From positions 1 to 64,000 of the forward strand of contig JANRKO010000038.1 in NCBI GenBank assembly GCA_033763455.1: DNA of 64,000 nt, written 5' to 3'. The notes below the pieces were generated by a model. The model did not search any database, had not been told where the DNA came from, and saw only the letters and a program-made list of their open reading frames with translations. Shown piece by piece: positions 1 through 43,338 of this stretch. Each line of letters begins with the position of its first letter. The first letter of the stretch is position 1. Origin of the DNA: Polyangiaceae bacterium (GTDB taxonomy: Bacteria > Myxococcota_A > Polyangia > Polyangiales > Polyangiaceae). Both the position numbers and the translations under genes were made by a program.

Positions 1-141
1 CGAGTACCTCACGGTTTTCTACAACCGCCAGCGAAAGCACTCGGCACGGAATGGGCTCAGCCCTGAACAGTTTGAATCTTGCAATGCAGGCCGCCTAGCG
101 GCATAACCTAACAACCTGTCCGGGAAAGCGGATCAACTCCA
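1..141 (+). mobile_element. Right end of an IS3-family insertion sequence (IRR about 116-141)
   Basis: The transposase stop is followed by CTGTCCGGGAAAGCGGATCAACTCCA, ending in the CA-3' typical of IS3 termini. Confidence 0.8.
2..106 (+). CDS. IS3-family transposase (OrfB integrase core), C-terminal end only; 5' part is outside the window
   Basis: Frame +2 reads EYLTVFYNRQRKHSARNGLSPEQFESCNAGRLAA*, matching the 'EYI..FYNR.R.HS.LG..SP..FE' terminus of IS3 OrfB. Confidence 0.85.
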   Translation, partial: EYLTVFYNRQRKHSARNGLSPEQFESCNAGRLAA

Positions 142-236
142 GTGTGTTTCTTTCGCTTTCGACGAGTCTTGCTTTCCATGATCTAACTCCGAGGATACCC
201 TCTTTGCTGGGTGTCCTGGAAATCCGGGGAAGCTCA
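142..236 (-). mobile_element. Left-end remnant of a second IS3-family element (IRL plus start of orfA), interrupted by the first IS
   Basis: The minus strand from 236 reads TGAGCTTCCCCGGATTTCCAGGACAC (TG-start IRL), then GGAG and an ATG at 179 encoding MESKTRRKRKKHT, an IS3 OrfA-like N-terminus that is cut at 142. Confidence 0.75.
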
Positions 237-1485
237 GTGACTCGATGATTGTGCCGAGTCCAGGAACAGCGTCAGGATGGTTCGTTATGGCATTTTGAGC
301 GGCGGCTAGGTCCCTCGACACAAACGTCGGAGCCCGTGCCGCGTCGAGTCCATTCTCAAGGATGGCGGGCCCATTCTTGATACTCCCGTGAAAGACCGAG
401 ACTGTCTCCTCTGCCGCTTGCGCGCTCACAACCGTCGCAGGTTTCAAACTCCGAGCAGCCGCCGCCTGCATGGCCTTGCCCAGGCCTCGGGCAGCTCCAG
501 CGCTGGCCATACCGATGGCGCCGTCGATCGCTACATCCTTAAGCGTTCCGAAATCCTTACCGCCGCTCGAAACGCCGCGCTCTGCCAGCCCAGCCGCGGC
601 ATTGGCCACCGCTCCTTGGGCGAGCACCATGCCAAGCCCAGCTTGCGGGCAGGCAGTCGCTATCGCTCCGCCGACCGCTCCACCGAATGCGGCTGCGCCA
701 ATCCGGCCCCAGTCCGTGATGTGCCCGTTGCTTTGCATCATCTGGGCAGCAGCTTGCAAACCAGCGCCCACTGCCCCCCCAACAATAGCTCCAGCCAAAA
801 CCTGCCAAAATTCCCCACTAGAATCCCGCGCCACCATCGGCGTCAGGTTCGCGTAAGCGTAAGGATTGACCGCTCCGAACTCGGCACCTAGGTAACGCTC
901 TGGTTCGTCTACAGCTACAGGGTCTCCGCTGATCCAGAAGCCCAGCTGGTGGCTGTAAAACCTCGCCCCCACTTGGTCGAGGCTCGCGCTTTTGTCGCGA
1001 ATGCCCGTGGCGTACTTCGAGATTTCGCTGGATGTATCGTAGCGACTAACGCCATACGGATAGCTCGCAAAGCGGCCCCGCACTTCCCCGGTGCCGTTCG
1101 TTTCCACGAGCGCTGATCCTAATGGATCCGAGAAAATCAGTGTATCTTCAGCCGTGAGCACCTGCACGCTGCCGCCAGGGAGCGCCGCCTTTGGGCTATC
1201 GCTGCTGCACGCGCTCACCACCAAGAGCGCCAATGCTCCCAGAGCCAAACGTGCTGGCCACACCAACCGACGTCGATAATGCCAACCGAGCACCACCAAC
1301 AGCAACGGAGCTACAAAGAAGTAACCTGTAGCGGCTACTTGGGCAAACCAGCTCCCGAAGCGCGCCAATGTTCCCGTCTTGCCGCCAGCTGCATCTCCAG
1401 CTGTATTACCTCCCTCCAATCCGGCTATTCCCGTTGGTGCCCCAGCAGCCGCCCCATTACCCGTCGCAAGCTTCGCCACGATCAA
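237..1485 (-). pseudogene. Orphan RHS-core/toxin module 2 with a probable ADP-ribosyltransferase-like tip, truncated by the IS3 insertion at 236
   Basis: Near-identical to the RHS-core region of 4489-10623 (IFSDPLGS...GARFYS...NPYAYANLTPMVARDSSG). The tip VSVFHGS...ILENG...TFVSRDLAAA resembles ART-fold strand 1/2 motifs. The last ~34 aa of the ORF-track protein are IS read-through. Confidence 0.75.
790..1480. repeat. RHS-core homology block, copy 3 (boundaries approximate)
   Basis: Long near-identical DNA shared with about 3040-3863 and about 5230-6035. Confidence 0.9.
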
Positions 1486-2339
1486 GTGGGCCCACTAACC
1501 GGAAAGTCGGAGCGACGATGCGAGTAGTGCTTGCGCTCCATAAAGGCAACGTGCTTGAGCCTTGGCAGCCTCTTTAGGGGTGTCAGGTCTCCATCCTGAA
1601 CATTCGTGGACTCATAGAACAGAACCTGCTCAAGTTCCGTCAAAGCGCTGAGCGGCCTGAACGTGTCGATGTCCTTGTCGTTGCAGAGCTGCAAGCGGCG
1701 AAGCCCTCGTAGCGCCTCTAGCGGTGCAATGTTCGTGACCTTGGGGCAATCGTTCACTTCGAGCCCAACGAGCCCGGTAAGTGACTCGATTCCGTCGAGA
1801 CTGGTCAATCTCCGCGCAACGTATAGCCCTAAGAAGCTCAGCGATCTGAGCGTTTCGATGCCTCTCAGCGTTTCGATCTTCGGGCTCGCCAGCGAAAGCG
1901 ACTCCAGACTGATCATCTTGGACATTGCGGTGAAGTCCTTTTCAGCGCACTTGTTGATGAACACCTCCTTCACTCCCTGATGTGAAAACAGAGACACAGC
2001 TCTGGGCCTCCACTCCAGGCTGCAATCCTCCAGCAAAGGTAAACCTAGGAAGAGCAACTCTGTTTTACAGTACGTGAACACTTTGAGGTAGCGAAGAAAC
2101 TTCAAATCGTTGACCGCGCTGACGTCAACGGCGTTCCAATCAGTAAGTTCGAGCCCAAGTAGATTTGGCATCTGTCTTAGAAAAGAATAGTCGCTACCAA
2201 CCCACCCCTTGGCGTAGTTCAGCTCAAGTTCTCGAATGCGCGCGCTTTCGACCGCGCCAAGGGCCAGAGGCGACCATGGCCCATGCATAACGAGCCTCGG
2301 ACCATACTTCCCCGGTTCCACGATCCAGTTAGCAGACAT
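1482..2339 (-). CDS. Leucine-rich-repeat protein, probable immunity protein for orphan module 1
   Basis: Repeated LxxLxxLxL motifs (IETLRSLSFLGL, IESLTGLVGLEV, LEALRGLRRLQL); starts 3 bp after the stop of the GIY-YIG tip; no signal peptide. Confidence 0.8.
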   Translation of the reverse strand: MSANWIVEPGKYGPRLVMHGPWSPLALGAVESARIRELELNYAKGWVGSDYSFLRQMPNLLGLELTDWNAVDVSAVNDLKFLRYLKVFTYCKTELLFLGLPLLEDCSLEWRPRAVSLFSHQGVKEVFINKCAEKDFTAMSKMISLESLSLASPKIETLRGIETLRSLSFLGLYVARRLTSLDGIESLTGLVGLEVNDCPKVTNIAPLEALRGLRRLQLCNDKDIDTFRPLSALTELEQVLFYESTNVQDGDLTPLKRLPRLKHVAFMERKHYSHRRSDFPVSGPT

Positions 2340-2342
2340 CGA

Positions 2343-3917
2343 TCAATTGCCTTCCTTCAAGAGATTCTTGCGAGCGGGACCAATTGGATTTACCTTGTTT
2401 TCTAGCTCGCTTACTCCACCGAGAGCGTCGATCCTCTTTTGCTCGGCGATCTCCCTGGCAGTCTTCCCTCCCAATACCTCCGTCGATGTCACCTGGGCAC
2501 CTTCCGGAAGTTTCCCTGACCGCGCGTGCTGCTCCAGGCGCTTGGGGATGTTGCCAGATTGCCCGACATACTTTTTCCCAGACCGGCCGATAAACTCGTA
2601 GATCCCCTCGGTTGCTTGGGCCCCCGGCTTTACACCACGCGACGCCCTATACTGCGCCTTCCACGCAGCTTCACTGCTCAGGACCGTCGCAGATTTCACC
2701 TGCGGCGCAGGCGCCTTGACTACCTTGCTCAGGCCCCGTCCAGCTTTGGCCCCGTTGGGCCCCAACATCCCGATAGTGCCGTCGACAACCACGTCCGTGG
2801 CGGTCCCGAAGTCTTTCCCGCCACTCGCGATGCCCCGCTCCGCAAGCCCCCCGATAATACTTCCCCCGGCGCGCACCAGCACCATCGCCAGCCCAGCTTG
2901 CGGACAAACGGTTGCTAACGCTCCCCCAACCGCTCCACCTGCAGTCGCCGCGCCTATCCGCCCCAAATCCGTGATGTGCCCCGTTTCGCTGTACTGACGA
3001 AACGCCTCGAGCCCGCCGCCCACCACGGCGCCTATGCCCGCCCCCACCAAAATCTGCCAAAATTCCCCACTAGAATCCCGCGCCACCATCGGCGTCAGGT
3101 TCGCGTAAGCGTACGGATTGGCGGCTCCGAACTCCGCACCCAGGTAAAGCTCAGGTTCATCTACAGCTACTGGGTCTCCGCTGATCCAGAAGCCAAGCTG
3201 GTGGCTGTAAAACCTCGCCCCCATTTGGTCGAGGCTCGCGCTCTTATCGCGAATGCCTGTCGCGTACTTCGAGATTTCGCTAGATGTATCGTAGCGGCTA
3301 ACGCCATACGGATAGCTCGCAAAGCGGCCTCGCACTTCGCCGTTGCCGCTCGTTTCCACGAGCACTGATCCCAATGGATCCGAGAAAATCAGCGTATCTT
3401 CGGCAGTAAGCACCTGCACGCTGCCGCCAGGAACCGCCGTCTTTGGGCTATCGCTGCTGCACGCACTCACCACCAAGAGAGCCAATGCTCCCAGAGCCAA
3501 ACGTGCTGGCCACACCAACCGACGTCGATAGTGCCAACCGAGCACCACCAGCAGCAACGGTGCTAAAAACAAGCAACCTGTAGCGGCGACTTGTGCAAAC
3601 CAGCTCCCGAAGCGCGCCAATGCTCCCGTCTTGCCGCCAGCTGCATCTCCAGCTGTATTACCTCCCTTCAATCCGGCTATTCCCGTTGGTGCCCCAGCAG
3701 CCGCCCCATTACCCGCCGCAAGCTTCGCCACGCGCTTATCCGCATGCACAATGTAGCGCTCGAGCTTCCCGTCCCTCACCTCGCTCCATTGATCAATAAA
3801 TACAACTTTTGACTCCTGACCGCTCGCTGCCTTCTCAACGCGTACTCGCCTCACCCCTTCGCGAGTCTGAGCTGGATTTGTTGCCCCAACTCGCTGCGGC
3901 CTCCGTGCTTTCGTCAT
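2343..3917 (-). CDS. Orphan RHS-core/toxin module 1 with a GIY-YIG (URI-fold) nuclease tip
   Basis: Duplicates the parent toxin from REGVRRVRVEK onward; the tip has GIYEF-x7-YVGQS-x5-RLEQH...E...N; the start codon is uncertain. Confidence 0.8.
   Translation of the reverse strand: MTKARRPQRVGATNPAQTREGVRRVRVEKAASGQESKVVFIDQWSEVRDGKLERYIVHADKRVAKLAAGNGAAAGAPTGIAGLKGGNTAGDAAGGKTGALARFGSWFAQVAATGCLFLAPLLLVVLGWHYRRRLVWPARLALGALALLVVSACSSDSPKTAVPGGSVQVLTAEDTLIFSDPLGSVLVETSGNGEVRGRFASYPYGVSRYDTSSEISKYATGIRDKSASLDQMGARFYSHQLGFWISGDPVAVDEPELYLGAEFGAANPYAYANLTPMVARDSSGEFWQILVGAGIGAVVGGGLEAFRQYSETGHITDLGRIGAATAGGAVGGALATVCPQAGLAMVLVRAGGSIIGGLAERGIASGGKDFGTATDVVVDGTIGMLGPNGAKAGRGLSKVVKAPAPQVKSATVLSSEAAWKAQYRASRGVKPGAQATEGIYEFIGRSGKKYVGQSGNIPKRLEQHARSGKLPEGAQVTSTEVLGGKTAREIAEQKRIDALGGVSELENKVNPIGPARKNLLKEGN
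3040..3863. repeat. RHS-core homology block, copy 2 (boundaries approximate)
   Basis: For example, GACTCCTGACCGCTCGCTGCCTTCTCAACGCGTACTCG occurs both here and at about 5984-6021. Confidence 0.9.
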
Positions 3918-4015: not shown

Positions 4016-4492
4016 CTACTGCCCCTTAGGTCGCATTGAGATCACCCATTTGTTCGGCTTGCCTGCAAAATGATCTTGGAGGCGATCGACAACGTGACTA
4101 GCGCTCCACACGGCTGCTCGCTCAAGGGCATCCAGCTGACCTGGCATAGGTTGTAGCTCTTCAGCCCCTGTTCTGCCCACCGTAATCTTGCCCGAGATGG
4201 CGTCCTGCTTAAAAAACCAGGGCGCAACTGCCAAGTCGGGCGGCACGTCCGCCTTCCCAAGAACTGGCCACAGGCCATCGACAATGGGCTGATTCATGAC
4301 CCAGATCTTGAAAGCAACTGGCGAGCGAATGATTTCCTCGACAGAAGGCATGGAATCCCTTTTGGCAGATAGATCGAAGAACGCCATCAAGGGCTCCTCA
4401 AGCACAAGTCCAAACCCAACCCGTTCACCGTCCGCCAACGGAATTGCAACCAACTCACCCGCCACGCGTGGAATCTTGCGTCTCCGACTCAT
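4016..4492 (-). CDS. Imm26-like immunity protein
   Basis: GELVAIPLADG...FGLVL...FFD...WPVLG...LERAAVW...DRL...GKPNKW pattern of Imm26; ATGA overlap with the toxin stop at 4489-4492. Confidence 0.8.
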   Translation of the reverse strand: MSRRRKIPRVAGELVAIPLADGERVGFGLVLEEPLMAFFDLSAKRDSMPSVEEIIRSPVAFKIWVMNQPIVDGLWPVLGKADVPPDLAVAPWFFKQDAISGKITVGRTGAEELQPMPGQLDALERAAVWSASHVVDRLQDHFAGKPNKWVISMRPKGQ

Positions 4493-7400
4493 TGCTCAAA
4501 CTCCTTCTTCGCTGCTTCAATGTAGGCTGATTTTTTGGGATTCGAGGGTGATATCCCGTTTATTGCGTTGCCGGAGGTACCGCCCCGCGACTTCGCGCCG
4601 CCGTTAGCGTCGATGAGCTGCTGCTCTCGCCCTCGGATTGCAGACTTGTTGGCAGAAGACTTGTCTAGTTGTGCCGGACCGAAGCCTTGCTCGTTCATGT
4701 GATGGTTAGTGTCACGCCGAGCGATATTCTGCTCCGGTGTGCCTGTGCCACTTGTTCGCCCCGAGTAGACCTCCCCAGTTGTCGGGTTCGTTTTGGTGTA
4801 CGTTTGGTAGGTTTTGCTTCCCCCTCCAGTGCGCGAAGCCTTATACTGCGCTTGCCACGCAGATTCACTGCTCAGTACCGTCGCAGGTTTCGCACTCCGA
4901 GCGCCAGCGGCGGTCACCACCTTGACGGTGCCGCGCAGCGCCCCGCCCGAGGCTGCTCCCATTGACGCGTCCGAAGCTACCTGGTGGAGAGTCCCGAAGT
5001 CGTTCCCTCCACTCGCTATCCCGCGTTCTGTCAGGCCTCCGGCGGCGGTGGCCAAACCTCCGGTGAGCATGGCCTCCCCAAGCCCAGCCGCCGGAAGGAA
5101 GGCAAACACTGCACCCGCAACGCAGCCCCCACCGGTGGCTGCTGCTACCCGACCAAAGTCGCTTACGCTACCTGATTCCGAGTACTGACGGAACGCCTCA
5201 AGCCCGCCGCCAACCAGCGCACCCACGCCCGCCCCGACCAAAATCTGCCAAAATTCCCCCTTCGAATCCCGCGCCACCATCGGCGTCAGGTTCGCGTAGG
5301 CGTACGGATTGGCCGCCCCGAACTCCGCACCTAGATAACGCTCAGGCTCGTCTACAGCTACAGGATCTCCGCTAATCCAGAAGCCCAACTGGTGGCTGTA
5401 AAACCTCGCCCCCATTTGGTCGAGGCTCGCTGTCTTATCGCGAATGCCTGTGGCGTACTTCGAGATTTCGCTGGATGAATCGTAGCGACTGACGCCGTAT
5501 GGATAGCTCGCAAAGCGGCCCCGCACTTCGCCGTTGCCGCTCGTTTCCACGAGCACTGATCCCAATGGATCCGAGAAAATCAGCGTATCTTCAGCCGTAA
5601 GCACCTGCACGCTGCCGCCAGGAACCGCCGCCTTTGGGCTATCGCTACCGCAAGCGCTTACTGCCAGAAGCGTCAGTACTGCAAATGCCAAACGTACTGG
5701 CCACAGCAACCGACGTCGATAATGCCAACCGAGCACCACCAGCAGCAACGGTGCTAAAAATAAGTAACCTGTAGCGGCGACTTGTGCAAACCAGATCCCG
5801 AAGTGCCCGAATGCTCCCGTCTTGCCGCCAGCTGCATCTCCAGCTGTGCTACCTCCCACTAATCCTGCCCCAGCCACCCCATTACCCGCCGCAAGCTTCG
5901 CCACCCGCTTATCCGCATGCACAATGTAGCGCTCGAGCTTTCCGTCCCTCACCTCGCTCCATTGATCAATGAATACAACTTTTGACTCCTGACCGCTCGC
6001 TGCCTTCTCAACGCGTACTCGACGCACGCCCTCGCGATCGAAATGATTCCTCACGCTGGAACCATCTGCGTTGGTAACCTCTTCCAGCTGATCGACGTTG
6101 TTCCAGCGGTAGCTGCGCCCACCCTCATTCGTGAGCCTCCCCATTGCATCAAAGCTAAGCGCTTGCCCGTCGATCGTGGCCGGCACATGGGGCCGCATGC
6201 CATTGCCATAGGTGAGCACAAGCGCCGTTTGCCCTGGGATCGTGCTCTTTCGTGACAGTAGATTGCCTGTAGGCGAGTAAGTCCACGAAGTATTGCCCCA
6301 GCGACCATCCACACCAGTTAACCGGTAGAGATTGTCGTAGTGGTAAGTTTCTGAGCGGTCGAGATCGGGTGTGATATCTGGCCGGCGATCCTCCACGCCT
6401 GTAAGGTTTCCGCCCGGATCGAAGGTCCACTTGAGGTGCTCCACGAGGCTGCCGTTGGCCGATAATATCCGCTGCTCGGTGAGCCTATCGTCCGCATCGA
6501 AGTCGAACTTCTGCAACACGCCGGTGTTGAAGCGCCGCTCTTGTTCGAGGCCGTCGCCACCGTAGGTGACCTTGAGGGCGTCTCCATATTCCGCCAGCTG
6601 CCCGCGTGAATTGCGCCCTATCCGAATCGACGACCCATCTGGATAAGTGTGGAGAACTTCGCGATCCAGGTTGTCGAACTGGCTCTTGGTGACGAAGCTT
6701 TGGCCCATGATAGCTAGCCGCGTTTCGGTAATTCGCGAGCGCTCGTCGTACGTGAACTCCGCCGTGGCCGTTGCGTCCTTTGCACGTACAAGCTTGCCTC
6801 GGAACCTTAAATCCTCTGGTGCGCTCGGAGCGACGTCCCAGGTTTCCTCCACATCGAGCGTTCCATCAGCGCCCCAATCTTCGCTCACTAGGCGGCCCGC
6901 TAGATCGAAGTTGTAACGAATAATGGTGCCGTCCGGGCGCCTCCTTTCGATAAGGTTCCCTGTTGGATCCCAGATGTTCGTGTGCGTGCCGAGATCCGGA
7001 TCGTGCACGGCAGTGCGCCGCCCGCGGCCGTCGTATTCATAGCTGGCTGTATTTCCCTCGGGATCAGTGCGGCTTACGAGCCGCCCTGCCGCGTCAAATC
7101 GGGCCTTGGCCGCAAGCACTTGGCCCTTCAGGGTGCGCAGGCTTTGTACCTCTCGGCCCTGACCGTCCAGCTCCGCAATGGTCGGAGTGAGCTCGTAGCC
7201 GGCGCTCGCATCCAGCTGCCCGCCGTCCCAGGTTTTCTTTTGAAGCGGCGCGTATTCTGCTCGCGTTTCGATACCGGAGGGAGAAACCGCGCGCACCACG
7301 CGACCGAGAGCATCCGCGTATGTGGTAGAACCGCGACCGTCTTCAAGCAGTGCGCCAGAAAGCTTGGGGTCCTCAGCTATTGCGTTGGGAATGAACCGGG

Positions 7401-10400
7401 GCCGCAAGTCCTTCTTTGCTTCCCCTCGAGCATTCAGAATTCGTACTCCAGCTAACACCCATTGCGTGTCATCCACGCGAGTCAAACTGCCGCGTGGGCG
7501 CCCTAGGCCATCAGAAAGCGCTTCCCCATGCTGAATGGGCGCTGTTTCAACGCCCGTGCGCGATTCCGTCACCACCCGTGAGAGCGGTGCGCCCGGAATG
7601 TAACGATAGGTGGTGGTGGGTGCATCGGCAGGGTCGCCCGGAGCGAATACCCGCACCACGCGGCCCAGCGGATCATATTCGTACCGCCGCGTTTGCCCGT
7701 TGTATTCAGTAGCGGTGAGCAGAGTACCAAAACGCGGATCGTAAGTTGCGTGTTCGGTAAGGTCGACGGCCGATTCCAGCTTCACCTTCTCGCTCGTGAG
7801 GCCCGTGTGGTGCACCGGATCCCACTCGAATATTCGGCCACCGCCGCGAGCGTCTTTCGTTTCTATCGGCAGCCCATCGCTGTTGTAGCGAGTGGCAGTG
7901 ACCATTTCGAACTCGGTTGCGGAAGGCCCGACCCATTCCTCTTGGCGTACTAAATCACCGCGTGTGATTTGCTCCAGGGGCAAGCCCACGAAAGGCTCGC
8001 CATCGTAGTAGTTGCGCTTGAGCGCGCGGCGTGTGCCGTCCGCTTCGGTGACCTCTTCCGTTGCAACGAATCCAAACAGCCATTCTGCCGGATCGTTGGC
8101 AAAAGTACGCTGGATGAGCGTTTCATCGTTGCCATGAAGTCGATCCTCTCCGCGGACCTCCCCCCAGCGTTTCTCTCGGATCACGTTGCCGTAGGCATCC
8201 TGCTCCCACTCCGTGAGCGTCTCGCGAATGGCCGACGCAACCGCACCCTCTACGTGTTGGACGCGCTCGGCAGAAGCATAGCCGTAGTGAACAACGCCGC
8301 CGTCGAGGGCTGTTTCAAGCGTTACCTCTTGATAACTTGCGATCTTTCTTTGAAATACCTTTCCCGTTTCGTCACGCACCTCGACCAAGCTGGGAGCGCC
8401 ACGCAGGGCGTGCGTGGTGAGGCCCATATTGAAGGTAGTCTCGGAAAGAAGCGTCGGAGAAAATTCATCGCCGACCTCCTTTTGGATCCCGGCGCCGAAC
8501 CCCGCAAAAGTGCGCTCGTTCGGATCCCATGCTCCATCTCGATAAATAAACTCCGTCACGAGCGGCGGATCCCCCAATCCTGAATCTGTGGTTATCCGGC
8601 TCACGACTGGTAAACCAGCGTTGACTCGGGTGGTCCAAGGCTTGCCTGCGCTCCGTGCACTCGCGGCAAACGAAGCCGCTGTGGTGTAGCTAATGGTCGT
8701 TACCTTGCCGAGGCCATTGTCGATCTTCTGAAGGAGGCCGGCCCGACCTTCTGGGAACAATTCGAGGTATTGCCAGGCTTTTTCAGGCCCTAGCGTGGGG
8801 TCGACCCAAACAATATCTGTGCTGCCGGAGCTGTTGATATCAACGAAAAAGCTCGCTCCATTCGGACCTTTTTCGGGCGTTCCGGACAGCGTCTGCAACG
8901 CGTCAAAGTTCCCAATCGCGTTTGCTAACGCGTACGAGACGCTCGTGGTGCCAACGCGCACCAGATCGTCCCACCCGTCCCCGTCAAGATCGACGAGCTG
9001 AAATGGCGCGGCGACGTCAAATGCTGGCACACCTGTGGCTACGCGCGCAGCTTCGAAGCGGCCACGCCCTCGACCTAAGTAATACGAGAGCCCCTCCGAA
9101 CGCAGGTGGCAGATATCCTGCACGCGGTCCCCGTTAATATCGCACAGCGTCGTTTGCCCGTCTGAGAAACGGAGAGGCTGTGTGGCGTCTATCTTTCCGA
9201 CCGTAACCGGTGGCGCCCAATCTTTCCCACTAAGGTTGTAAGAAATGGCCAACCCAGCGTCGGTGGTGATCACGGCATCCGTGCGCCGGTCCCCGTCCAT
9301 ATCAGCCAAGCGCACATCCGGATCCTCGAAGGAAAAGGCGGGCACAGTTGCAATAGCGACAGCTGAGCCGAATTCACCCGCATTTTTCCCGGGCAAGTAG
9401 CGAAAATCTGCGGTGCCGCTCTTCACCACCAGATCGATCGCGGCATCGCCATCTATATCCGCCAACTGGACGCCCACGCTGCCGAGCGAAACCGAAGGGC
9501 TGTTACCCGGAGCGAAATCTTGCGGAGGCAACCAACTTTGGCCATCTTGATTCACGTACGTACGGAAGCTTCCGGCGGCTCCCACCACGAGATCCGGCAG
9601 CCCATCTCCGTTGAGATCCGCGAACTCCACTCCCGCCTCACGGGGAGACCGACCTGGCGGATCCTGCATCGCCTTGACGCCTTGGGCGCTGAGGGTTGCC
9701 TCCGTGTACGCGAGTGAAAGCTCGGGCGCCGCGGTAACCCCATCGGCTCCCACAAGCTTAATGTGCGTGAGGTGCGCGTGCGTGCCAGCCGAATATTCGA
9801 GGGAGTAGCGCCGCACGAGAGCGCCACCGTAGGTAACTTCAATCTGACTGAGCTGCTTTTCGATCAGCTGGCGAATGCCCGCCGAGTACAACTCATAACG
9901 GCTCTGGCCGGGCGAGTAAGAAAGCTCAATTTTTGCCGTAGATTCAGGCGAAAATGCGTTCCACACCACGCTCGTGAGGAGCGCATAACCACTTGCAGTG
10001 TCCCACACGTAAGCAATGCGATGGCCGTGCAGATCGAGCTGTTCACGCAAGAGGTAGCTGACAACTTTCCCGGATCCTTCTTCGGTGTAGCCGTCACCCC
10101 CGAAGCGATACGTCACACCATTTTTGGTGCGGGCTTCGAAAACCTTTCCATCTGCTGAGCGCTTCACGCGCACGAACGCACCGGATTCCTGCTCCGGCCG
10201 GAACACCCCTGGCGCGACCTCTAGCAATGCCGACGGCAAGCCGAGCCCCACCAATTCAAAGCGATCCGATGCATCGAAACGAGGCACTCCATCAGTCGTG
10301 CGGAGGCGCACCTTGGGTAAACCTCCCAAACGAAAGCCCATGCCCAACTCGCTCACGCCGCCCCCGCCATCGTACTCTAGGGAGAGTGCAGGGCCGAAAC

Positions 10401-10623
10401 CTGCCGCTGCGGGTGGGACCGCGATATCCAAGCCGAAGCTTGCCGTGCCGGCGGCGAGCGACGCCGTAAAGCTTCGCCCCAAACCCTCAATCGAACCAGG
10501 GCCCTTTGGCAGGCTGATTTTCGTTGGATCTACGCCGCTGGCTCGCAAGGGCGACGCCAAAAGGAATACGAAGCATGCGAAAATCCAGGTCGAAAGCACT
10601 CTCAAGATGATTGAACGTTTCAT
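4489..10623 (-). CDS. Sec-signal TcB/TcC-like polymorphic toxin: SpvB N-domain, FG-GAP/VCBS repeats, TcdB-mid region, YD/RHS repeats, RHS core, URI-fold-like nuclease tip
   Basis: Signal peptide MKRSIILR...PLRA; ISLPKGPGSIEGLG (SpvB); DLNGDGLPD, DMDGDRRTD and DINGDRVQD repeats; GLLQKIDNGLG; many YDxxGR repeats; tip YQTYTK...YSGRTSG...IRGREQQLID...N. Confidence 0.9.
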   Translation of the reverse strand: MKRSIILRVLSTWIFACFVFLLASPLRASGVDPTKISLPKGPGSIEGLGRSFTASLAAGTASFGLDIAVPPAAAGFGPALSLEYDGGGGVSELGMGFRLGGLPKVRLRTTDGVPRFDASDRFELVGLGLPSALLEVAPGVFRPEQESGAFVRVKRSADGKVFEARTKNGVTYRFGGDGYTEEGSGKVVSYLLREQLDLHGHRIAYVWDTASGYALLTSVVWNAFSPESTAKIELSYSPGQSRYELYSAGIRQLIEKQLSQIEVTYGGALVRRYSLEYSAGTHAHLTHIKLVGADGVTAAPELSLAYTEATLSAQGVKAMQDPPGRSPREAGVEFADLNGDGLPDLVVGAAGSFRTYVNQDGQSWLPPQDFAPGNSPSVSLGSVGVQLADIDGDAAIDLVVKSGTADFRYLPGKNAGEFGSAVAIATVPAFSFEDPDVRLADMDGDRRTDAVITTDAGLAISYNLSGKDWAPPVTVGKIDATQPLRFSDGQTTLCDINGDRVQDICHLRSEGLSYYLGRGRGRFEAARVATGVPAFDVAAPFQLVDLDGDGWDDLVRVGTTSVSYALANAIGNFDALQTLSGTPEKGPNGASFFVDINSSGSTDIVWVDPTLGPEKAWQYLELFPEGRAGLLQKIDNGLGKVTTISYTTAASFAASARSAGKPWTTRVNAGLPVVSRITTDSGLGDPPLVTEFIYRDGAWDPNERTFAGFGAGIQKEVGDEFSPTLLSETTFNMGLTTHALRGAPSLVEVRDETGKVFQRKIASYQEVTLETALDGGVVHYGYASAERVQHVEGAVASAIRETLTEWEQDAYGNVIREKRWGEVRGEDRLHGNDETLIQRTFANDPAEWLFGFVATEEVTEADGTRRALKRNYYDGEPFVGLPLEQITRGDLVRQEEWVGPSATEFEMVTATRYNSDGLPIETKDARGGGRIFEWDPVHHTGLTSEKVKLESAVDLTEHATYDPRFGTLLTATEYNGQTRRYEYDPLGRVVRVFAPGDPADAPTTTYRYIPGAPLSRVVTESRTGVETAPIQHGEALSDGLGRPRGSLTRVDDTQWVLAGVRILNARGEAKKDLRPRFIPNAIAEDPKLSGALLEDGRGSTTYADALGRVVRAVSPSGIETRAEYAPLQKKTWDGGQLDASAGYELTPTIAELDGQGREVQSLRTLKGQVLAAKARFDAAGRLVSRTDPEGNTASYEYDGRGRRTAVHDPDLGTHTNIWDPTGNLIERRRPDGTIIRYNFDLAGRLVSEDWGADGTLDVEETWDVAPSAPEDLRFRGKLVRAKDATATAEFTYDERSRITETRLAIMGQSFVTKSQFDNLDREVLHTYPDGSSIRIGRNSRGQLAEYGDALKVTYGGDGLEQERRFNTGVLQKFDFDADDRLTEQRILSANGSLVEHLKWTFDPGGNLTGVEDRRPDITPDLDRSETYHYDNLYRLTGVDGRWGNTSWTYSPTGNLLSRKSTIPGQTALVLTYGNGMRPHVPATIDGQALSFDAMGRLTNEGGRSYRWNNVDQLEEVTNADGSSVRNHFDREGVRRVRVEKAASGQESKVVFIDQWSEVRDGKLERYIVHADKRVAKLAAGNGVAGAGLVGGSTAGDAAGGKTGAFGHFGIWFAQVAATGYLFLAPLLLVVLGWHYRRRLLWPVRLAFAVLTLLAVSACGSDSPKAAVPGGSVQVLTAEDTLIFSDPLGSVLVETSGNGEVRGRFASYPYGVSRYDSSSEISKYATGIRDKTASLDQMGARFYSHQLGFWISGDPVAVDEPERYLGAEFGAANPYAYANLTPMVARDSKGEFWQILVGAGVGALVGGGLEAFRQYSESGSVSDFGRVAAATGGGCVAGAVFAFLPAAGLGEAMLTGGLATAAGGLTERGIASGGNDFGTLHQVASDASMGAASGGALRGTVKVVTAAGARSAKPATVLSSESAWQAQYKASRTGGGSKTYQTYTKTNPTTGEVYSGRTSGTGTPEQNIARRDTNHHMNEQGFGPAQLDKSSANKSAIRGREQQLIDANGGAKSRGGTSGNAINGISPSNPKKSAYIEAAKKEFEQ
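5230..6035. repeat. RHS-core homology block, copy 1 (inside the full-length toxin; boundaries approximate)
   Basis: Direct repeat of the two orphan 5' regions. Confidence 0.9.
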
Positions 10624-12251
10624 CCGCTCAATGTCTCTGCCGCAACCCCAGGTATGCCGTCGTTGGTCCCCGCCAGTCCACCATCGCCCTTGGCACCAGG
10701 TGTTCCGGGAGTAATCGTCGTGTCCATACGTGTTGGCTCGGTGCCCGTATAAACGATTCCCACCGACAAGCCTCCGGCTCCGCCGCCGCCTGGGCCGCCA
10801 GCGCCGCCAGGAGCGCCTGCTCCACCGTCGCAGCCCGACATGTAGCCCTTGCCACGCAGCCCCCCGCTTTGCCCCACTTGCCCCGCCGCTCCATCTCCGC
10901 CCTTGCCGCCATTCTTAGCTATCAACTCACACCCTTTCAGATTAACGATAGAGTTGACAGATAGGAGCGGAATGCTTCCTCCCCCGCCCTTTCCTCCGGA
11001 CCCGAGCGCTCCACCACAGCCACCGCAAGCACCACTCCCACCGCCGCCATCGGCCTTGCCCGCGCCTCCGCCTCCACCTTGACCAGGCTTGCCGGGCGTT
11101 CCGTCTGTACCGGAGCCCGGCTGCCAGAGGTTGGACGAGATGGAGCCGACACTACTTGCGCCGACACCTGGCGTACCAGCGGAGCCAGCGGTACCGACCC
11201 TTCCGCCGCCGCCGCCCCCACAGTCCGCCATTGTATCCCCCTCATTGCTGGCCACAGGAGTAGTGGCAGGAGATGAAGACCCCTTGCCACCGTTTGCATC
11301 CTGACTTCCACCGGACCCCCCCTTAGTGGTCCCCCCGCCCACGCAAACGCAAGCTTCAGGCATCAAGCCACCCGCTAGGCCGGTGGCGTCAACGCCCTTC
11401 AACGCCGGGAGGCTAAAGTCATAGCTTGCTAGGCCACCAGGCGCACCATCAGCACCATTGCCCGCCGTTAACTTAACTCGGGTCAATGTGACATTCATCG
11501 AATCCACGACGCGCGCAACGATGCTCGACTTGCCCGCTGTTGCGTTCTTCGCTTCAAATTCGAAGTCTTCAATACTCACGACCGCAGTCATCGCGCTTAC
11601 GTCCAACGCCAACCCCTCATTCGTTGGCACCACCTTCGCTCGCGCCGCCGCCCCATAACTCCACGGCGTCGCCGACCCGGGACACGCAAAGCCTCCGTAC
11701 ATCACCACGCCAGCGTTCACCACAAGCGACTCAGCGTACGTTCCTGCACACGCATACACGCGCTTATTCTGTTCTTGAGCCAAAGTTACGGCTTTAGCCA
11801 GTGTCTTCACAGGTTTCACTTTCGTCCCCGCACCGGTATCGCTACCGCTCGGCGCCACGAAAATGCCGTACAAATCGTCAGTCACGCACGCATCTTCCGA
11901 CGGCTGCTTGGTTCCGTCACACGGTGGCGGCAACGCTCCGCCCGCGCCGCCGCTCATGTTCGTGGCTCCGCCCAGCGAGCTCATTCCGCCGCTTGCGCTT
12001 CCGCCAACGCTCATCCCGCTTCCCCCAACGCTCGCTCCGCTTCCACCCACCGCCGACATTCCGCCAGGGGTTCCGGATTGGCCTGCGCCACCCCCAGAAC
12101 CTTTGCCGCCAACACCTGGTGGCGCTGCGCGAAACGGCCCGCTGGGGCACTCCTTGCTCGAATCTTCGCAGGTACCGGAGAGGCACGCTTGGGCCAACAA
12201 GGCCGGCGCGGCGAGCAGGGGAACCAACACCAAAACGTTACGTATACGCAT
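10620..12251 (-). CDS. Gly-rich (PGRS-like) lipoprotein with a DUF1565/beta-helix-like segment
   Basis: Lipobox LLAQAC; GIFVAPSGSD..AGT...PVKTL..AV motif; long GGxGG tracts; its stop overlaps the toxin ATG (ATGA). Confidence 0.75.
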   Translation of the reverse strand: MRIRNVLVLVPLLAAPALLAQACLSGTCEDSSKECPSGPFRAAPPGVGGKGSGGGAGQSGTPGGMSAVGGSGASVGGSGMSVGGSASGGMSSLGGATNMSGGAGGALPPPCDGTKQPSEDACVTDDLYGIFVAPSGSDTGAGTKVKPVKTLAKAVTLAQEQNKRVYACAGTYAESLVVNAGVVMYGGFACPGSATPWSYGAAARAKVVPTNEGLALDVSAMTAVVSIEDFEFEAKNATAGKSSIVARVVDSMNVTLTRVKLTAGNGADGAPGGLASYDFSLPALKGVDATGLAGGLMPEACVCVGGGTTKGGSGGSQDANGGKGSSSPATTPVASNEGDTMADCGGGGGGRVGTAGSAGTPGVGASSVGSISSNLWQPGSGTDGTPGKPGQGGGGGAGKADGGGGSGACGGCGGALGSGGKGGGGSIPLLSVNSIVNLKGCELIAKNGGKGGDGAAGQVGQSGGLRGKGYMSGCDGGAGAPGGAGGPGGGGAGGLSVGIVYTGTEPTRMDTTITPGTPGAKGDGGLAGTNDGIPGVAAETLSG

Positions 12252-12331: not shown

Positions 12332-12682
12332 CTATTCGCTCGTGAGCCCAAGGAACAACTCGAGGCCTTGGTCGAGGGCCGCGAGCTCGTCCTTTGCGAT
12401 ACGCCCGAACACCCGCCGTATGCGGCGCTTGTCGACCGAGCGTAGATGATCGATAAGGGCGTAAGAGATCTTCGTCAGACCACTCTTGCCTGGAGAGAGC
12501 TCAGGGTAGAGCGCCCCATCGCCCTGAGTGCCAGTGATCGGCACGACCGCGATGAGCGGGAAGCGTTGATCGGCGTTGACCGCAGGGTCGCTAACCGCAA
12601 CGCATGGGCGCGTGCCGCGCTGCTCGTGGCCGACGGTCGGATCTAGCTCGACGAGAACAACGGACCCACGATCGACGATCAC
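12332..12682 (-). CDS. PemK/MazF-family type II toxin (endoribonuclease)
   Basis: RGSVVLVELDPTVGHEQRGTRPCVAVS...VVPIT...DHLRSVDKRRI; GTG start overlaps the antitoxin stop (GTGA). Confidence 0.9.
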   Translation of the reverse strand: MIVDRGSVVLVELDPTVGHEQRGTRPCVAVSDPAVNADQRFPLIAVVPITGTQGDGALYPELSPGKSGLTKISYALIDHLRSVDKRRIRRVFGRIAKDELAALDQGLELFLGLTSE

Positions 12683-12981
12683 GCCGAATCCTCTACCCAG
12701 CCATGGCCCTCGACCCATCGCACCGGCTTACCAGCAGACTCGTCGACCAAGCCCTCATCATCCGGCGGCAGGCTCACGCCCCAGTCGGCGAGCCCTGTTT
12801 CGGCAAGCTCGGCAGCCTCCGCGTGAGGGCTTGCAAGTGACCGGAGTAGCCCCTCTCGCCGTCGCCGAACGAGCTCGTGCTCGACGGCCTCGGTAATGAA
12901 GCGGCTTCGGTTCCGCTCGAAGCGATCGATACCCTCGACGAGGTCGATCGGCAGGGTGACGGTGACTCGCTCAGTAGCCAT
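12679..12981 (-). CDS. RHH/CopG-type antitoxin
   Basis: RVTVTLPIDLVEGIDRFERNRSRFITEAV; acidic C-terminus; lies directly upstream of the MazF-like gene. Confidence 0.8.
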   Translation of the reverse strand: MATERVTVTLPIDLVEGIDRFERNRSRFITEAVEHELVRRRREGLLRSLASPHAEAAELAETGLADWGVSLPPDDEGLVDESAGKPVRWVEGHGWVEDSA

Positions 12982-13143: not shown

Positions 13144-13728
13144 CTAAGCGTCAGACACTTTTGGCAGGAACAGGCGCCCAATCTCGAGCTCGATGGCCTC
13201 GAACGGCGGAATGCGAGCGGTCGCTGCATCGCCCCACGCACCAACTTCAAGCCAACGCCCTTCGCGCAACTCAAGGGCTTCCAGGATTCGCGCCTCGGGA
13301 TCAATAATCCAATAGTGGGCAACACCATGGCGTGCGTAGAGAGCGCGCTTGTCAACACGATCGCGTGCTTCGCTTGATGGCGAAGTGATTTCGCAAACCC
13401 AGTCCGGCGGCGTTAAGATCGGACGGGCGGCACCAGGATCGGCGAGCCTTTCGCGGCGCCATCCCGAGAGATCAGGCCTTACGACATCGTGAACACCAAG
13501 CTGAACGTCGACCTCGACAAAGATCCACCAGCCGCCTGGGCCACCGCGCCCGTCGTCATCGTGAAAAGGCCCCCCAACGAACCGCCCCAGCGCGCGCTGA
13601 GAATTTGAATGTCGGGGGAGAGACGCTGGCGAGGTAACGACACGCCCGCCCAGGATCTCCGCCCGCGCATCTTCCGGCAGTTCAAGGAGGTTTTGAAAGG
13701 TGGCCAGAGCCTCTGCCGCCAGCGACAT
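13144..13728 (-). CDS. Uma2-family (DUF820) PD-(D/E)XK endonuclease-like protein
   Basis: RAEILGG...PDLSGWRRER...PDWVCEITSPS...DRVDK..LYARHGV.HYWIIDP; start refined to the ATG at 13728. Confidence 0.9.
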   Translation of the reverse strand: MSLAAEALATFQNLLELPEDARAEILGGRVVTSPASLPRHSNSQRALGRFVGGPFHDDDGRGGPGGWWIFVEVDVQLGVHDVVRPDLSGWRRERLADPGAARPILTPPDWVCEITSPSSEARDRVDKRALYARHGVAHYWIIDPEARILEALELREGRWLEVGAWGDAATARIPPFEAIELEIGRLFLPKVSDA

Positions 13729-14040
13729 CCCCAAGTAGCTAGCACAACAGGGCGACACCGCACACGCCCAGCCCCACACAGACCCTTTAGGGCCGCTTCG
13801 CCTTGGGGTGCGCCAACACGTTAAACCCCTCGATTGCGGCGGCATTCGCGAGACGATCGTCGAAGCACACGAAAGCATGGCCGGCGGGCGCTTCCGACAC
13901 GGCTAGTAGCGCGGCCGCCAGTTGCAGGGCGTCCGCAGCCCCTGCCTCCTATGCCGAGAGTTTCGCGATGTTGGCTAGCCACGGCGTCATTGAACCCGCG
14001 CTCGCTCAGCGTAAAAGCTCCGCGCAGCTGTTTTCAGCGT

Positions 14041-42655: not shown

Positions 42656-43195
42656 CTAGCGGACGAATAGGTCCTTCAGTTCGAGGGTGAAGCCCGGCAA
42701 CAACGGAGACTCAAGCTTGCCTTCAACCAGTTCCCTAACCTGTGCCAAGCCTTCCGCTGCTCGAACTTCTATGGCGCCTGCTTGGTCGATCAGCCAGTAC
42801 TCCCGCACGCCGGCTTCCGCGTACACATACCGCTTGGCCACCCGATCGTAACTTCGGTTTAACGACAGTACCTCGATGCAAAGGTCCGGGACCCGATCAA
42901 TCGGCCCCTCTTGGTCTGGGGGTAGCTTGCACAAAAAGACGCAAGCATCGGGTTGCAGGATTCTGCCCGGCCCGAAGCGGATATCGAGCGGCGCTTGCGT
43001 GAGAGTCACGGGCTCCGGATGTGTATCGACCCACCTGCCGAGGGCCAGCACTAAACGTCGCAAGATTTCTTGATGTCGAAAGCTCGGGATCGGCGCCATC
43101 ACTACCTCCCCATCCAAGAGCTCCACTTGCTGCATAGACTCCGGGAGAGCCAAGAACTCGGCTTCGGTTACCAGGGAGCGAGCAGCGTTTGTCAC
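42656..43195 (-). CDS. Uma2-family (DUF820) endonuclease-like protein
   Basis: EFLALPE...ELLDG, HQ, QPD, PDLCIEVLS, DRVAK...YAEAGVREYWLID. Confidence 0.9.
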   Translation of the reverse strand: MTNAARSLVTEAEFLALPESMQQVELLDGEVVMAPIPSFRHQEILRRLVLALGRWVDTHPEPVTLTQAPLDIRFGPGRILQPDACVFLCKLPPDQEGPIDRVPDLCIEVLSLNRSYDRVAKRYVYAEAGVREYWLIDQAGAIEVRAAEGLAQVRELVEGKLESPLLPGFTLELKDLFVR

Positions 43196-43338
43196 CGGCG
43201 CTGAGTATAGCTGAAGGTGCTCGGAAAGCGAACCCGCAACGGTTTGAGTCACACGAATTCTACGCGGAGGCCGGATATTTGGACGAGACAAAAAAAACAG
43301 ATCGCACGATGCTCCGACACAGAATTAGACTTCGCACC

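Follow-up and report, generated by a model that had tools for sequence, protein, structure and literature searches.

We analysed a stretch of 64,000 nucleotides (referred to here as the window) from a Polyangiaceae bacterium (GenBank assembly GCA_033763455.1, contig JANRKO010000038.1, positions 1 to 64,000), in which a 2044-residue Sec-type toxin of the RHS class carries an insert of about 100 residues between the last strand of its shell and its final hairpin and plug. The insert holds a helix of transmembrane (TM) length, a basic loop and a lipobox-like element ending in Cys1658. The anatomy of the insert is established, as are the conservation of this anatomy and the way in which it co-varies with exported sequence upstream. 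Judged by its homologues, the element is more than a product of chance, conserved and specific to its clade. We give an even chance to the reading, drawn from sequence, that it is a two-part membrane-topology cassette, in which a stop-transfer helix is followed by an internal type II signal that would be lipidated by Lgt and cut by LspA directly before Cys1658. The insert, which a family of RHS toxins of uncultured myxobacteria from soil shares, suggests an undescribed way of anchoring or splitting RHS toxins.

Anatomy and conservation of the insert

Open reading frame calling on the first 12 kb of the window gave, all on the minus strand, the 2044-residue gene, a 158-residue gene and two shorter open reading frames. 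The translated toxin runs from a type I signal peptide through SpvB, an FG-GAP propeller, TcdB_midN and the RHS shell to the insert, the final hairpin and plug, a pre-toxin region and a C-terminal toxin; the insert and the parts that frame it are as follows:

4489..10623, minus strand: full-length toxin gene, 2044 residues (P0001), from the open reading frame and its translation
10537..10623, minus strand: predicted type I (Sec) signal peptide at the N-terminus (roughly residues 1-29), hydropathy being highest over residues 3-28
5797..5886, minus strand: Gly/Ala-rich flexible linker, residues 1580-1609, from sequence; its length and sequence vary across homologues
5722..5796, minus strand: helix 1, residues 1610-1634, 25 residues and TM-length, proposed stop-transfer segment (Kyte-Doolittle 19-mer peak 2.02)
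5692..5721, minus strand: Arg-rich loop or n-region, YRRRLLWPVR, residues 1635-1644, four Arg and a net charge of +4, from sequence
5650..5691, minus strand: h-region (13 residues, 1645-1657, ending VSA) and Cys1658 (codon TGC at 5650-5652)
5608..5649, minus strand: polar Gly/Ser/Asp/Pro tether (GSDSPK...), residues 1659-1672, from sequence
5257..5607, minus strand: last shell hairpin (residues 1673-1706) and RHS-associated core or C-terminal plug (1707-1789) with conserved Asp, from TIGR03696 and alignments

The last shell strand ends at residue 1578; the insert follows it, ahead of the final hairpin and plug, and is present in the toxin and in both orphan modules of the locus. Translation and hydropathy bore out the original prediction, made from the letters alone, of an insert with this composition between the last shell strand and the motif IFSDPLGS (which begins at residue 1682), and all of its sequence statements and coordinates were correct; as a refinement, the insert precedes one last beta-hairpin and the plug and is not set directly against the plug. 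Both orphans keep VSA-C as had been claimed, with Cys153 and Cys93, whose codons lie at 3459-3461 and 1207-1209 by arithmetic from the starts of the open reading frames, and their h-regions do differ from that of the main gene in translation and hydropathy. The positive n-region, short h-region, small residue at -1 and Cys at +1 of a lipoprotein signal are all found in the window. The N-terminal position of such a signal is not, the element occupying residues 1635-1658 of 2044 and standing N-terminally only in 13 short relatives. The toxin has five Cys in total, one in the N-terminal signal, a conserved pair in the propeller (C494/C505, 11 apart), one in the variable part and Cys1658, which is the only conserved Cys with no obvious partner. 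In control windows drawn from the shells of 32 family members, a 17-mer as strongly hydrophobic as helix 1 was rare (29 of 4448).

A search with toxin residues 1530-1800 returned 34 other proteins, 36-77% identical in that region and mostly of about 2000 residues, which together with the three modules of the window form a set of 37 sequences. In a MAFFT alignment all 34 homologues have the linker, helix, basic loop, short h-region, small residue-Cys and polar tether in this order. The Cys is aligned in 36 of the 37 sequences (in P0034 it lies a few residues further on, with G at -1), and G, A or S stands at -1 in every one (37/37). The loop ahead of the h-region holds 1-5 K/R and 0-2 D/E and is net positive throughout the set (37/37), with R in 21-25 of 34-35 sequences at its three Arg columns. 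From the last charged residue to the Cys there are 11-21 residues (median 14, 37 sequences), as compared with an uncharged stretch of 19-46 residues around helix 1, and from the Cys to the D.LGS motif there are 27-52 residues (median 30, 36 sequences), the tethers being polar.

Two further alignments and the DNA itself give the same picture for the Cys. Alignment A2 joins a fragment of the window protein to 33 near-full-length homologues, omitting the N-terminally incomplete P0009, P0011, P0014, P0017 and P0020 and adding P0043, P0065, P0067 and P0076, and alignment A1 covers the short members; at the DNA level we examined 20 modules, from 14 loci of L001-L016 (metagenome-assembled genomes (MAGs) of Polyangiaceae type) and from the window. 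The original prediction had named an unconserved Cys or lipobox in homologous inserts as evidence against it, and the element proved conserved, with an invariant Cys in 34/34 rows of A2 and 24/24 rows of A1, and with the element itself in 20/20 DNA modules. Pairwise identity is 0.22-0.27 within the insert, compared with 0.55-0.60 in the flanks, and the Cys column is kept in 34/35. The features of the insert are conserved while its residues drift, and only the traits that define a type II signal are kept.

Export, topology and proposed processing

Full-length members have type I signal peptides at their N-termini, directly ahead of the conserved start of SpvB, and the N-termini of the homologues are comparable, with an A-x-A-like end at this point; the shell is therefore exported N-to-C through Sec. 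For a signal peptide to act, its n-region has to be cytoplasmic, and an internal signal behind an exported domain thus needs a stop-transfer helix ahead of it. The relatives vary in just this respect. Among 187 proteins in hand that match a hidden Markov model of the family core, 88 pass a simple test for a signal-like Cys (several of those failing are false negatives of the test or gene calls that start inside the h-region). Of the 66 relatives in which 90 residues or more precede the Cys, all but P0052, P0075 and P0159 have helix 1, scored as a 17-mer of Kyte-Doolittle hydropathy >= 1.5 (63/66), and the 13 relatives of the 88 in which the Cys stands at position 35 or earlier begin directly at the basic n-region, without helix 1, ten of them starting with M. 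The logic of this topology is well supported by the comparative data, and from it we infer the topology itself.

In the mechanism that we propose, the shell (residues 30 to about 1578) would be exported through Sec by the N-terminal type I signal, helix 1 would halt transfer and return the chain to the cytoplasm, the Arg-rich loop would be kept inside, and the internal type II signal peptide would restart export, now of the final hairpin, plug and toxin. Cys1658 would come to stand at the periplasmic face, where Lgt would attach a diacylglyceryl group and LspA would cut directly before it, giving two products, a shell with a membrane hairpin at its end and a piece, anchored by lipid, that comprises hairpin, plug and toxin. 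During loading of the toxin the plug end of the cocoon would be held at the membrane beside the translocon, so the toxin might pass straight into the shell, and with a lipid anchor on the toxin-bearing piece the Lol pathway could carry that piece to the outer membrane. The catalytic Asp and Gly columns of the plug are conserved, so that closing the shell and cutting off the toxin must still fall to the C-terminal piece, as in solved Rhs proteins (PMC10684867). The steps that we infer are lipidation, cleavage by LspA, sorting to the outer membrane, the purpose of the device and a link to outer-membrane exchange; such exchange would be possible in principle, as traAB occurs in Sorangium.

Two readings of the insert had been put forward in the original prediction, a tether made of a helical hairpin and an internal site for Lgt and signal peptidase II; the anatomy behind both stands, and the comparative data favour the second. 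The first would make the insert a permanent, uncleaved anchor that ties the cocoon to the inner membrane through the pre-plug loop, with the Cys conserved for some other reason. Such an anchor would look like what is seen, two hydrophobic helices in succession, joined by a positive loop and flanked by flexible linkers, and Sec-exported SpvB-RHS relatives with soluble inserts in the same loop indicate that the site tolerates appendages. We nevertheless consider it unlikely, as a hairpin anchor has no need for an invariant Cys (here one with no conserved disulfide partner), for G/A/S at -1 or for a second uncharged segment of 11-21 residues, and a tether in the inner membrane offers no route to a target cell.

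The short forms raise another explanation, in which the signal is active only in separately expressed modules (5'-truncated orphans that yield small lipoprotein toxins) and the full-length gene carries it passively as recombination homology. That 13 of the 88 element-bearing relatives begin at the signal, mostly with M and basic residues, fits this explanation, as do three short forms (P0047, P0073 and P0074) that share the same start and N-terminus at 62-66% mutual identity, and the 85-100% DNA identity that the main gene shares with the orphans from shell end to plug. However, helix 1 is kept in 63/66 of the longer forms and in every aligned full-length member, which is expected only if topology matters in the fusion, and without it, export of the shell would be followed by a lone hydrophobic segment that leaves plug and toxin trapped in the cytoplasm. 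The orphans of the window, moreover, start some 60-105 residues before helix 1 and not at the signal, and the short forms, dispersed across the tree, may be partial gene calls, all of which makes a signal confined to the orphans distinctly improbable. An origin of the signal-starting forms as one old stand-alone clade was ruled out on the core tree, where they are scattered and well-supported branches force at least 10 changes.

A start codon inside helix 1 could likewise yield a separate small lipoprotein from within the large gene. The three copies in the window have an in-frame GTG or TTG in helix 1, and 14 of the 20 modules have an in-frame start codon within 12 codons of the n-region; yet a Shine-Dalgarno-like motif precedes such a codon in only 1/20 modules, 6/20 have no such codon, and no Met or Val column is conserved there. 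On the DNA of these 20 modules we rejected the internal start, to which we attach almost no credence.

The region that follows the plug in all modules is hydrophobic, Gly-rich and conserved, and the A1 profile matches it weakly to the C-terminal chain of pore-forming Tse5 (E 1.7e-3), so that membrane activity may be part of the system. N-terminal TM helices of some type VI secretion system (T6SS) Rhs effectors are thought to act in the target membrane. The hydrophobic pair might by the same token be a cargo or device that is carried inside or on the surface of the cocoon in the producer and then inserted into the membrane of the target cell and helps the toxin to cross. We hold this to be very unlikely, since it leaves the lipobox-like Cys, the positive loop and the absence of helix 1 in signal-starting forms unexplained, and since the shell is Sec-exported, so that the translocon of the producer would catch a TM-length helix first. 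Under the proposed two-part cassette the same resemblance allows a speculation, namely that translocon-side loading may matter given a hydrophobic pre-toxin region that resembles the Tse5 fragment.

An AlphaFold2 model of orphan 1 (A1) places two helices at residues 100-129 and 131-153, with a predicted local distance difference test score (pLDDT) of 61-82, ending exactly at Cys153. The shell end and last hairpins are confident strands, the pre-toxin region forms long helices (pLDDT 82-88), and linker and tether fall below a pLDDT of 50, the linker having no secondary structure.

Several points weigh against an internal type II signal that is processed. The model just described is poor overall (mean pLDDT 56, predicted template modelling score 0.29), and signals and TM segments were assigned by Kyte-Doolittle windows and regular expressions. 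The strict lipobox consensus is [LVI][ASTVI][GAS]C, and only 20 of the 37 sequences match it. In the wider set the -1 residue can be V (P0045) or Q (P0064, P0066, P0190), and Lys, which at +2 is an inner-membrane retention signal in Myxococcus xanthus, stands at +2 in four of the 37 (P0029, P0030, P0035, P0036); in such sub-lineages sorting could differ or processing could have been lost. The signal-starting short forms are scattered among full-length relatives on the core tree, and many of them may be 5'-truncated orphans or partial gene calls and not working lipoproteins; as many are probably truncated or partial, they are used here only as evidence for the topology rule. Once cleaved off, the shell piece would be retained at the inner membrane through its hairpin, which leaves the exit of the cocoon or toxin unexplained, and we know of no natural internal type II signal.

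In most members the +2 residue is Gly or Ser, and none of the copies in the window has Lys at +2. By the rule for M. xanthus given in the accessible part of PMC5562445, most members would therefore be sent to the outer membrane. The widest form of the proposal is that this is the first natural internal type II signal, with LspA cutting between shell and plug to leave a two-piece cocoon, the lipidated plug-toxin piece passing to Lol and the outer membrane and possibly into intercellular exchange, and delivery needing neither a T6SS nor a TcA; this we put forward tentatively, as a possibility that is open to considerable doubt.

Distribution and relation to known systems

An exhaustive phmmer search with residues 1575-1795 matched 737 proteins at a threshold of E <= 1e-3, of which 25 reached E <= 1e-30. 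In a scan of one genome per species, relatives were found only in uncultured Polyangiaceae, Polyangiales, Myxococcales and 'Deltaproteobacteria' MAGs (L001-L018), with weak matches to the core only in Actinomycetes; the scan used a single peptide pattern, which bounds any inference of absence elsewhere. Canonical RHS proteins among the matches have only 10-15 residues at the insert site, in agreement with the earlier statement that canonical shells have no such insert, and at the same site soluble inserts, 65-170 residues long, are found in other SpvB-RHS proteins of Sec type. The loop is therefore a recurrent insertion site, filled here with membrane segments, and the position ahead of the last hairpin looks like a general attachment site for anchoring or binding modules. 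The proteins with soluble inserts (P0113, P0114, P0116, P0154, P0174, P0147, P0145, P0175, P0158) include some of SpvB type with N-terminal signal peptides. Their inserts are either of 65-85 residues, with a 'DGxIxAADA' or an Asp-rich, calcium-site-like motif, or of another kind with 150-170 residues; Pfam named none of the soluble inserts of these other lineages. A phmmer search of residues 1530-1800 against PDB sequences gave no match, and there the A1 profile matched just the plug and, weakly, Tse5-CT. One short protein, P0128, has an N-terminal lipoprotein-type signal directly before a canonical RHS core (YYxHxDHLGG type), which suggests that shell-less modules of lipobox, core and toxin also occur outside the insert-bearing family.

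An internal signal behind a stop-transfer helix has a precedent in the rhizobial cytochrome b/c1 precursor, a polyprotein whose stop-transfer helix precedes a cleavable internal signal through which the part downstream is exported again. Internal-signal polyproteins of this kind are cut by signal peptidase I. Within the reach of our literature search, an internal site for signal peptidase II, as in lipoproteins, would be new; a full-text search for an internal lipobox or internal lipoprotein signal returned nothing relevant, in a literature in which subscription papers were thinly covered.

The closest architecture is that of the B and C subunits of Tc toxins (TcdB2-TccC3, YenB-YenC2), which share SpvB, the FG-GAP propeller, the TcdB middle domain, the RHS shell, the Asp plug and a variable toxin. 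Unlike these, the window protein is a single Sec-exported polypeptide with an N-terminal signal peptide, it is accompanied by an immunity gene and orphan cassettes, the 64-kb window has no TcA-size open reading frame or TcA-type Pfam match, and the protein carries the insert of TM helix and lipobox in a loop that was compared with the 10-15 residues of canonical RHS proteins. Where T6SS Rhs effectors have TM helices, these are N-terminal and not in the pre-plug loop. The window toxin differs from them further in being Sec-exported and in having no PAAR or VgrG match in the Pfam and NCBIfam scans of the toxin; T6SS genes were likewise not found in the rest of the 64-kb window, which holds housekeeping genes. 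It resembles T6SS Rhs effectors (RhsA, Rhs1, Tse5) weakly in its pre-toxin region, which recalls Tse5-CT, and in the C-terminal aspartyl-protease plug that, in the part of PMC10684867 available, closes the shell while the toxin is cut off and held inside. By our own count the two Asp motifs of the plug are 29 residues apart in the window toxin, compared with 18-19 in the same part of PMC10684867.

Sec-dependent toxins of the Rhs/WapA type, including the Rhs proteins of M. xanthus implicated in kin discrimination, have the same signal peptide, YD shell, polymorphic toxin, immunity gene and orphans, and delivery of the M. xanthus Rhs is reported in the available text of PMC10433427 to be independent of T6SS. 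Every member of the family of the window toxin has the element between shell and plug, and the accessible descriptions of Rhs/WapA toxins mention none. SitA, which is delivered by outer-membrane exchange, is likewise from Myxococcota and likewise has a type II signal with a lipobox before a polymorphic toxin and a downstream immunity gene (PMC5562445, in its available part); its signal, however, stands at the N-terminus, and an RHS shell and plug are absent from SitA. The traAB genes occur in Sorangium, a genus of Polyangiaceae (PMC6372800, as far as its text was available), and are thus not confined to Cystobacterineae; none was seen in the Pfam scan of the 64-kb window.

The nearest precedent for a lipid anchor on this kind of shell is found in the bacterial teneurin-like YD-shell proteins of Myxococcota, for which the accessible part of PMC13018210 (2026) predicts anchoring through SEC/SPII signals. 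Anchoring of YD shells by lipid has therefore already been proposed there, at the other end of the protein: in the part of that paper available, the type II signal is N-terminal, whereas here a type I signal is N-terminal and the type II-like element lies inside the chain, some 1630 residues in. The accessible parts of Zhang et al. 2012 (PMC3482391), PMC5562445, PMC10433427 (a 2023 review of myxobacterial killing) and PMC13018210 make no mention of a membrane segment or lipobox internal to RHS toxins.

In the accessible portion of PMC10433427, Rhs delivery is only presumed to be contact-dependent at the cell surface. The element bears on how Sec-exported RHS toxins are retained at the surface, avoid harm to their producer and release their cargo, a whole clade having a conserved sequence device at the exact joint of shell and plug. 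Should processing of the internal signal occur, a signal that lies within a chain behind a stop-transfer helix can be a substrate for Lgt and LspA, lipoprotein predictors confined to N-termini would miss such cases, an RHS cocoon could be built from two chains in the periplasm, and RHS toxins would through their lipid anchors be connected with the lipoprotein-based traffic of toxins known in myxobacteria. Without processing, the insert would still be a hairpin anchor of an unusual kind, set in a loop which in other lineages holds soluble inserts.

The toxin locus, its orphans and neighbouring genes

The locus encodes an RHS polymorphic toxin of Sec type that resembles TcB/TcC, together with one immunity gene and two orphan modules; with its immunity genes and orphan cassettes, the toxin therefore looks like an inter-bacterial polymorphic toxin. 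Pfam matches on the toxin were RHS_repeat (3.5e-32), TcdB_toxin_midN (8.2e-25), FG-GAP_3 (3.6e-16) and SpvB (3.2e-10), the NCBIfam match was TIGR01643 (YD/RHS repeats, 6.2e-26), and its N-terminal half matched TcdB2-TccC3 and YenB chains in the PDB. TIGR03696 matches the plug at toxin residues 1707-1789 with 33.6 bits, and all three modules of the window with 33.6-36.4 bits (cut-off 32.5). The D/P and D/G columns of the plug are invariant or nearly so in A1 and A2, and the A1 profile aligns to the TccC3 core in the PDB (E 1.3e-4). The other features of the locus are:

4774..5253, minus strand: pre-toxin region, Gly/Ala-rich and hydrophobic, about residues 1791-1950, with a consensus conserved across modules
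4492..4773, minus strand: variable C-terminal toxin domain, about residues 1951-2044, where DNA identity with the orphans is lost after 5224
4016..4492, minus strand: immunity gene Imm26, 158 residues (Pfam Imm26, 1.2e-11)
2343..3917, minus strand: orphan module 1, 524 residues, with shell end, insert (Cys153 at 3459-3461), plug, pre-toxin region and GIY-YIG-like toxin
1482..2339, minus strand: leucine-rich-repeat (LRR) protein downstream of orphan 1 (LRR Pfam matches)
133..1485, minus strand: orphan module 2, 450 residues, with insert (Cys93 at 1207-1209), plug, pre-toxin region and a toxin of no family
10620..12251, minus strand: upstream gene, 543 residues, secreted and Gly-rich, with a signal peptide and possible lipobox; its stop overlaps the toxin start

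The pre-toxin region stands directly after the predicted aspartyl cleavage site and is common to all modules, both orphans included. It has no Pfam family, and an Atlas search gave no score of at least 0.9; it may help the variable toxin to cross a membrane. The C-terminal toxin domain itself had no Pfam match even at E <= 1.

As DNA, both orphans repeat the main gene directly from shell end to plug, at 85-100% identity (over 6045-5225 for orphan 1), and diverge afterwards. Within this repeat the h-region is a 60-nucleotide patch (5645-5704) at which the main gene is 70-73% identical to the orphans and the two orphans are 97% identical to each other; the patch could be a small gene-conversion mosaic or could reflect relaxed constraint. 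The GIY-YIG match of orphan 1 is below the Pfam cut-off, and the LRR protein between the orphans is by position its sole candidate immunity protein. Pfam gave no family for the toxin end of orphan 2, whose open reading frame opens with TTG at the end of the preceding LRR gene. In a plasmid collection the only match was at an orphan toxin end, in one Ralstonia record.

A promoter scan found 0 sites, and a terminator scan found fewer than in shuffled sequences. No Pfam family was found for the 543-residue upstream protein; its relatives lie near RHS genes of the family in L009 (directly upstream), L002, L005 and L017, and it is possibly an accessory protein. Near the toxin locus there are also a MazF/PemK-type toxin gene and two genes for putative endonucleases of the Uma2 family (12332-12718, 13144-13878 and 42656-43291, all on the minus strand).

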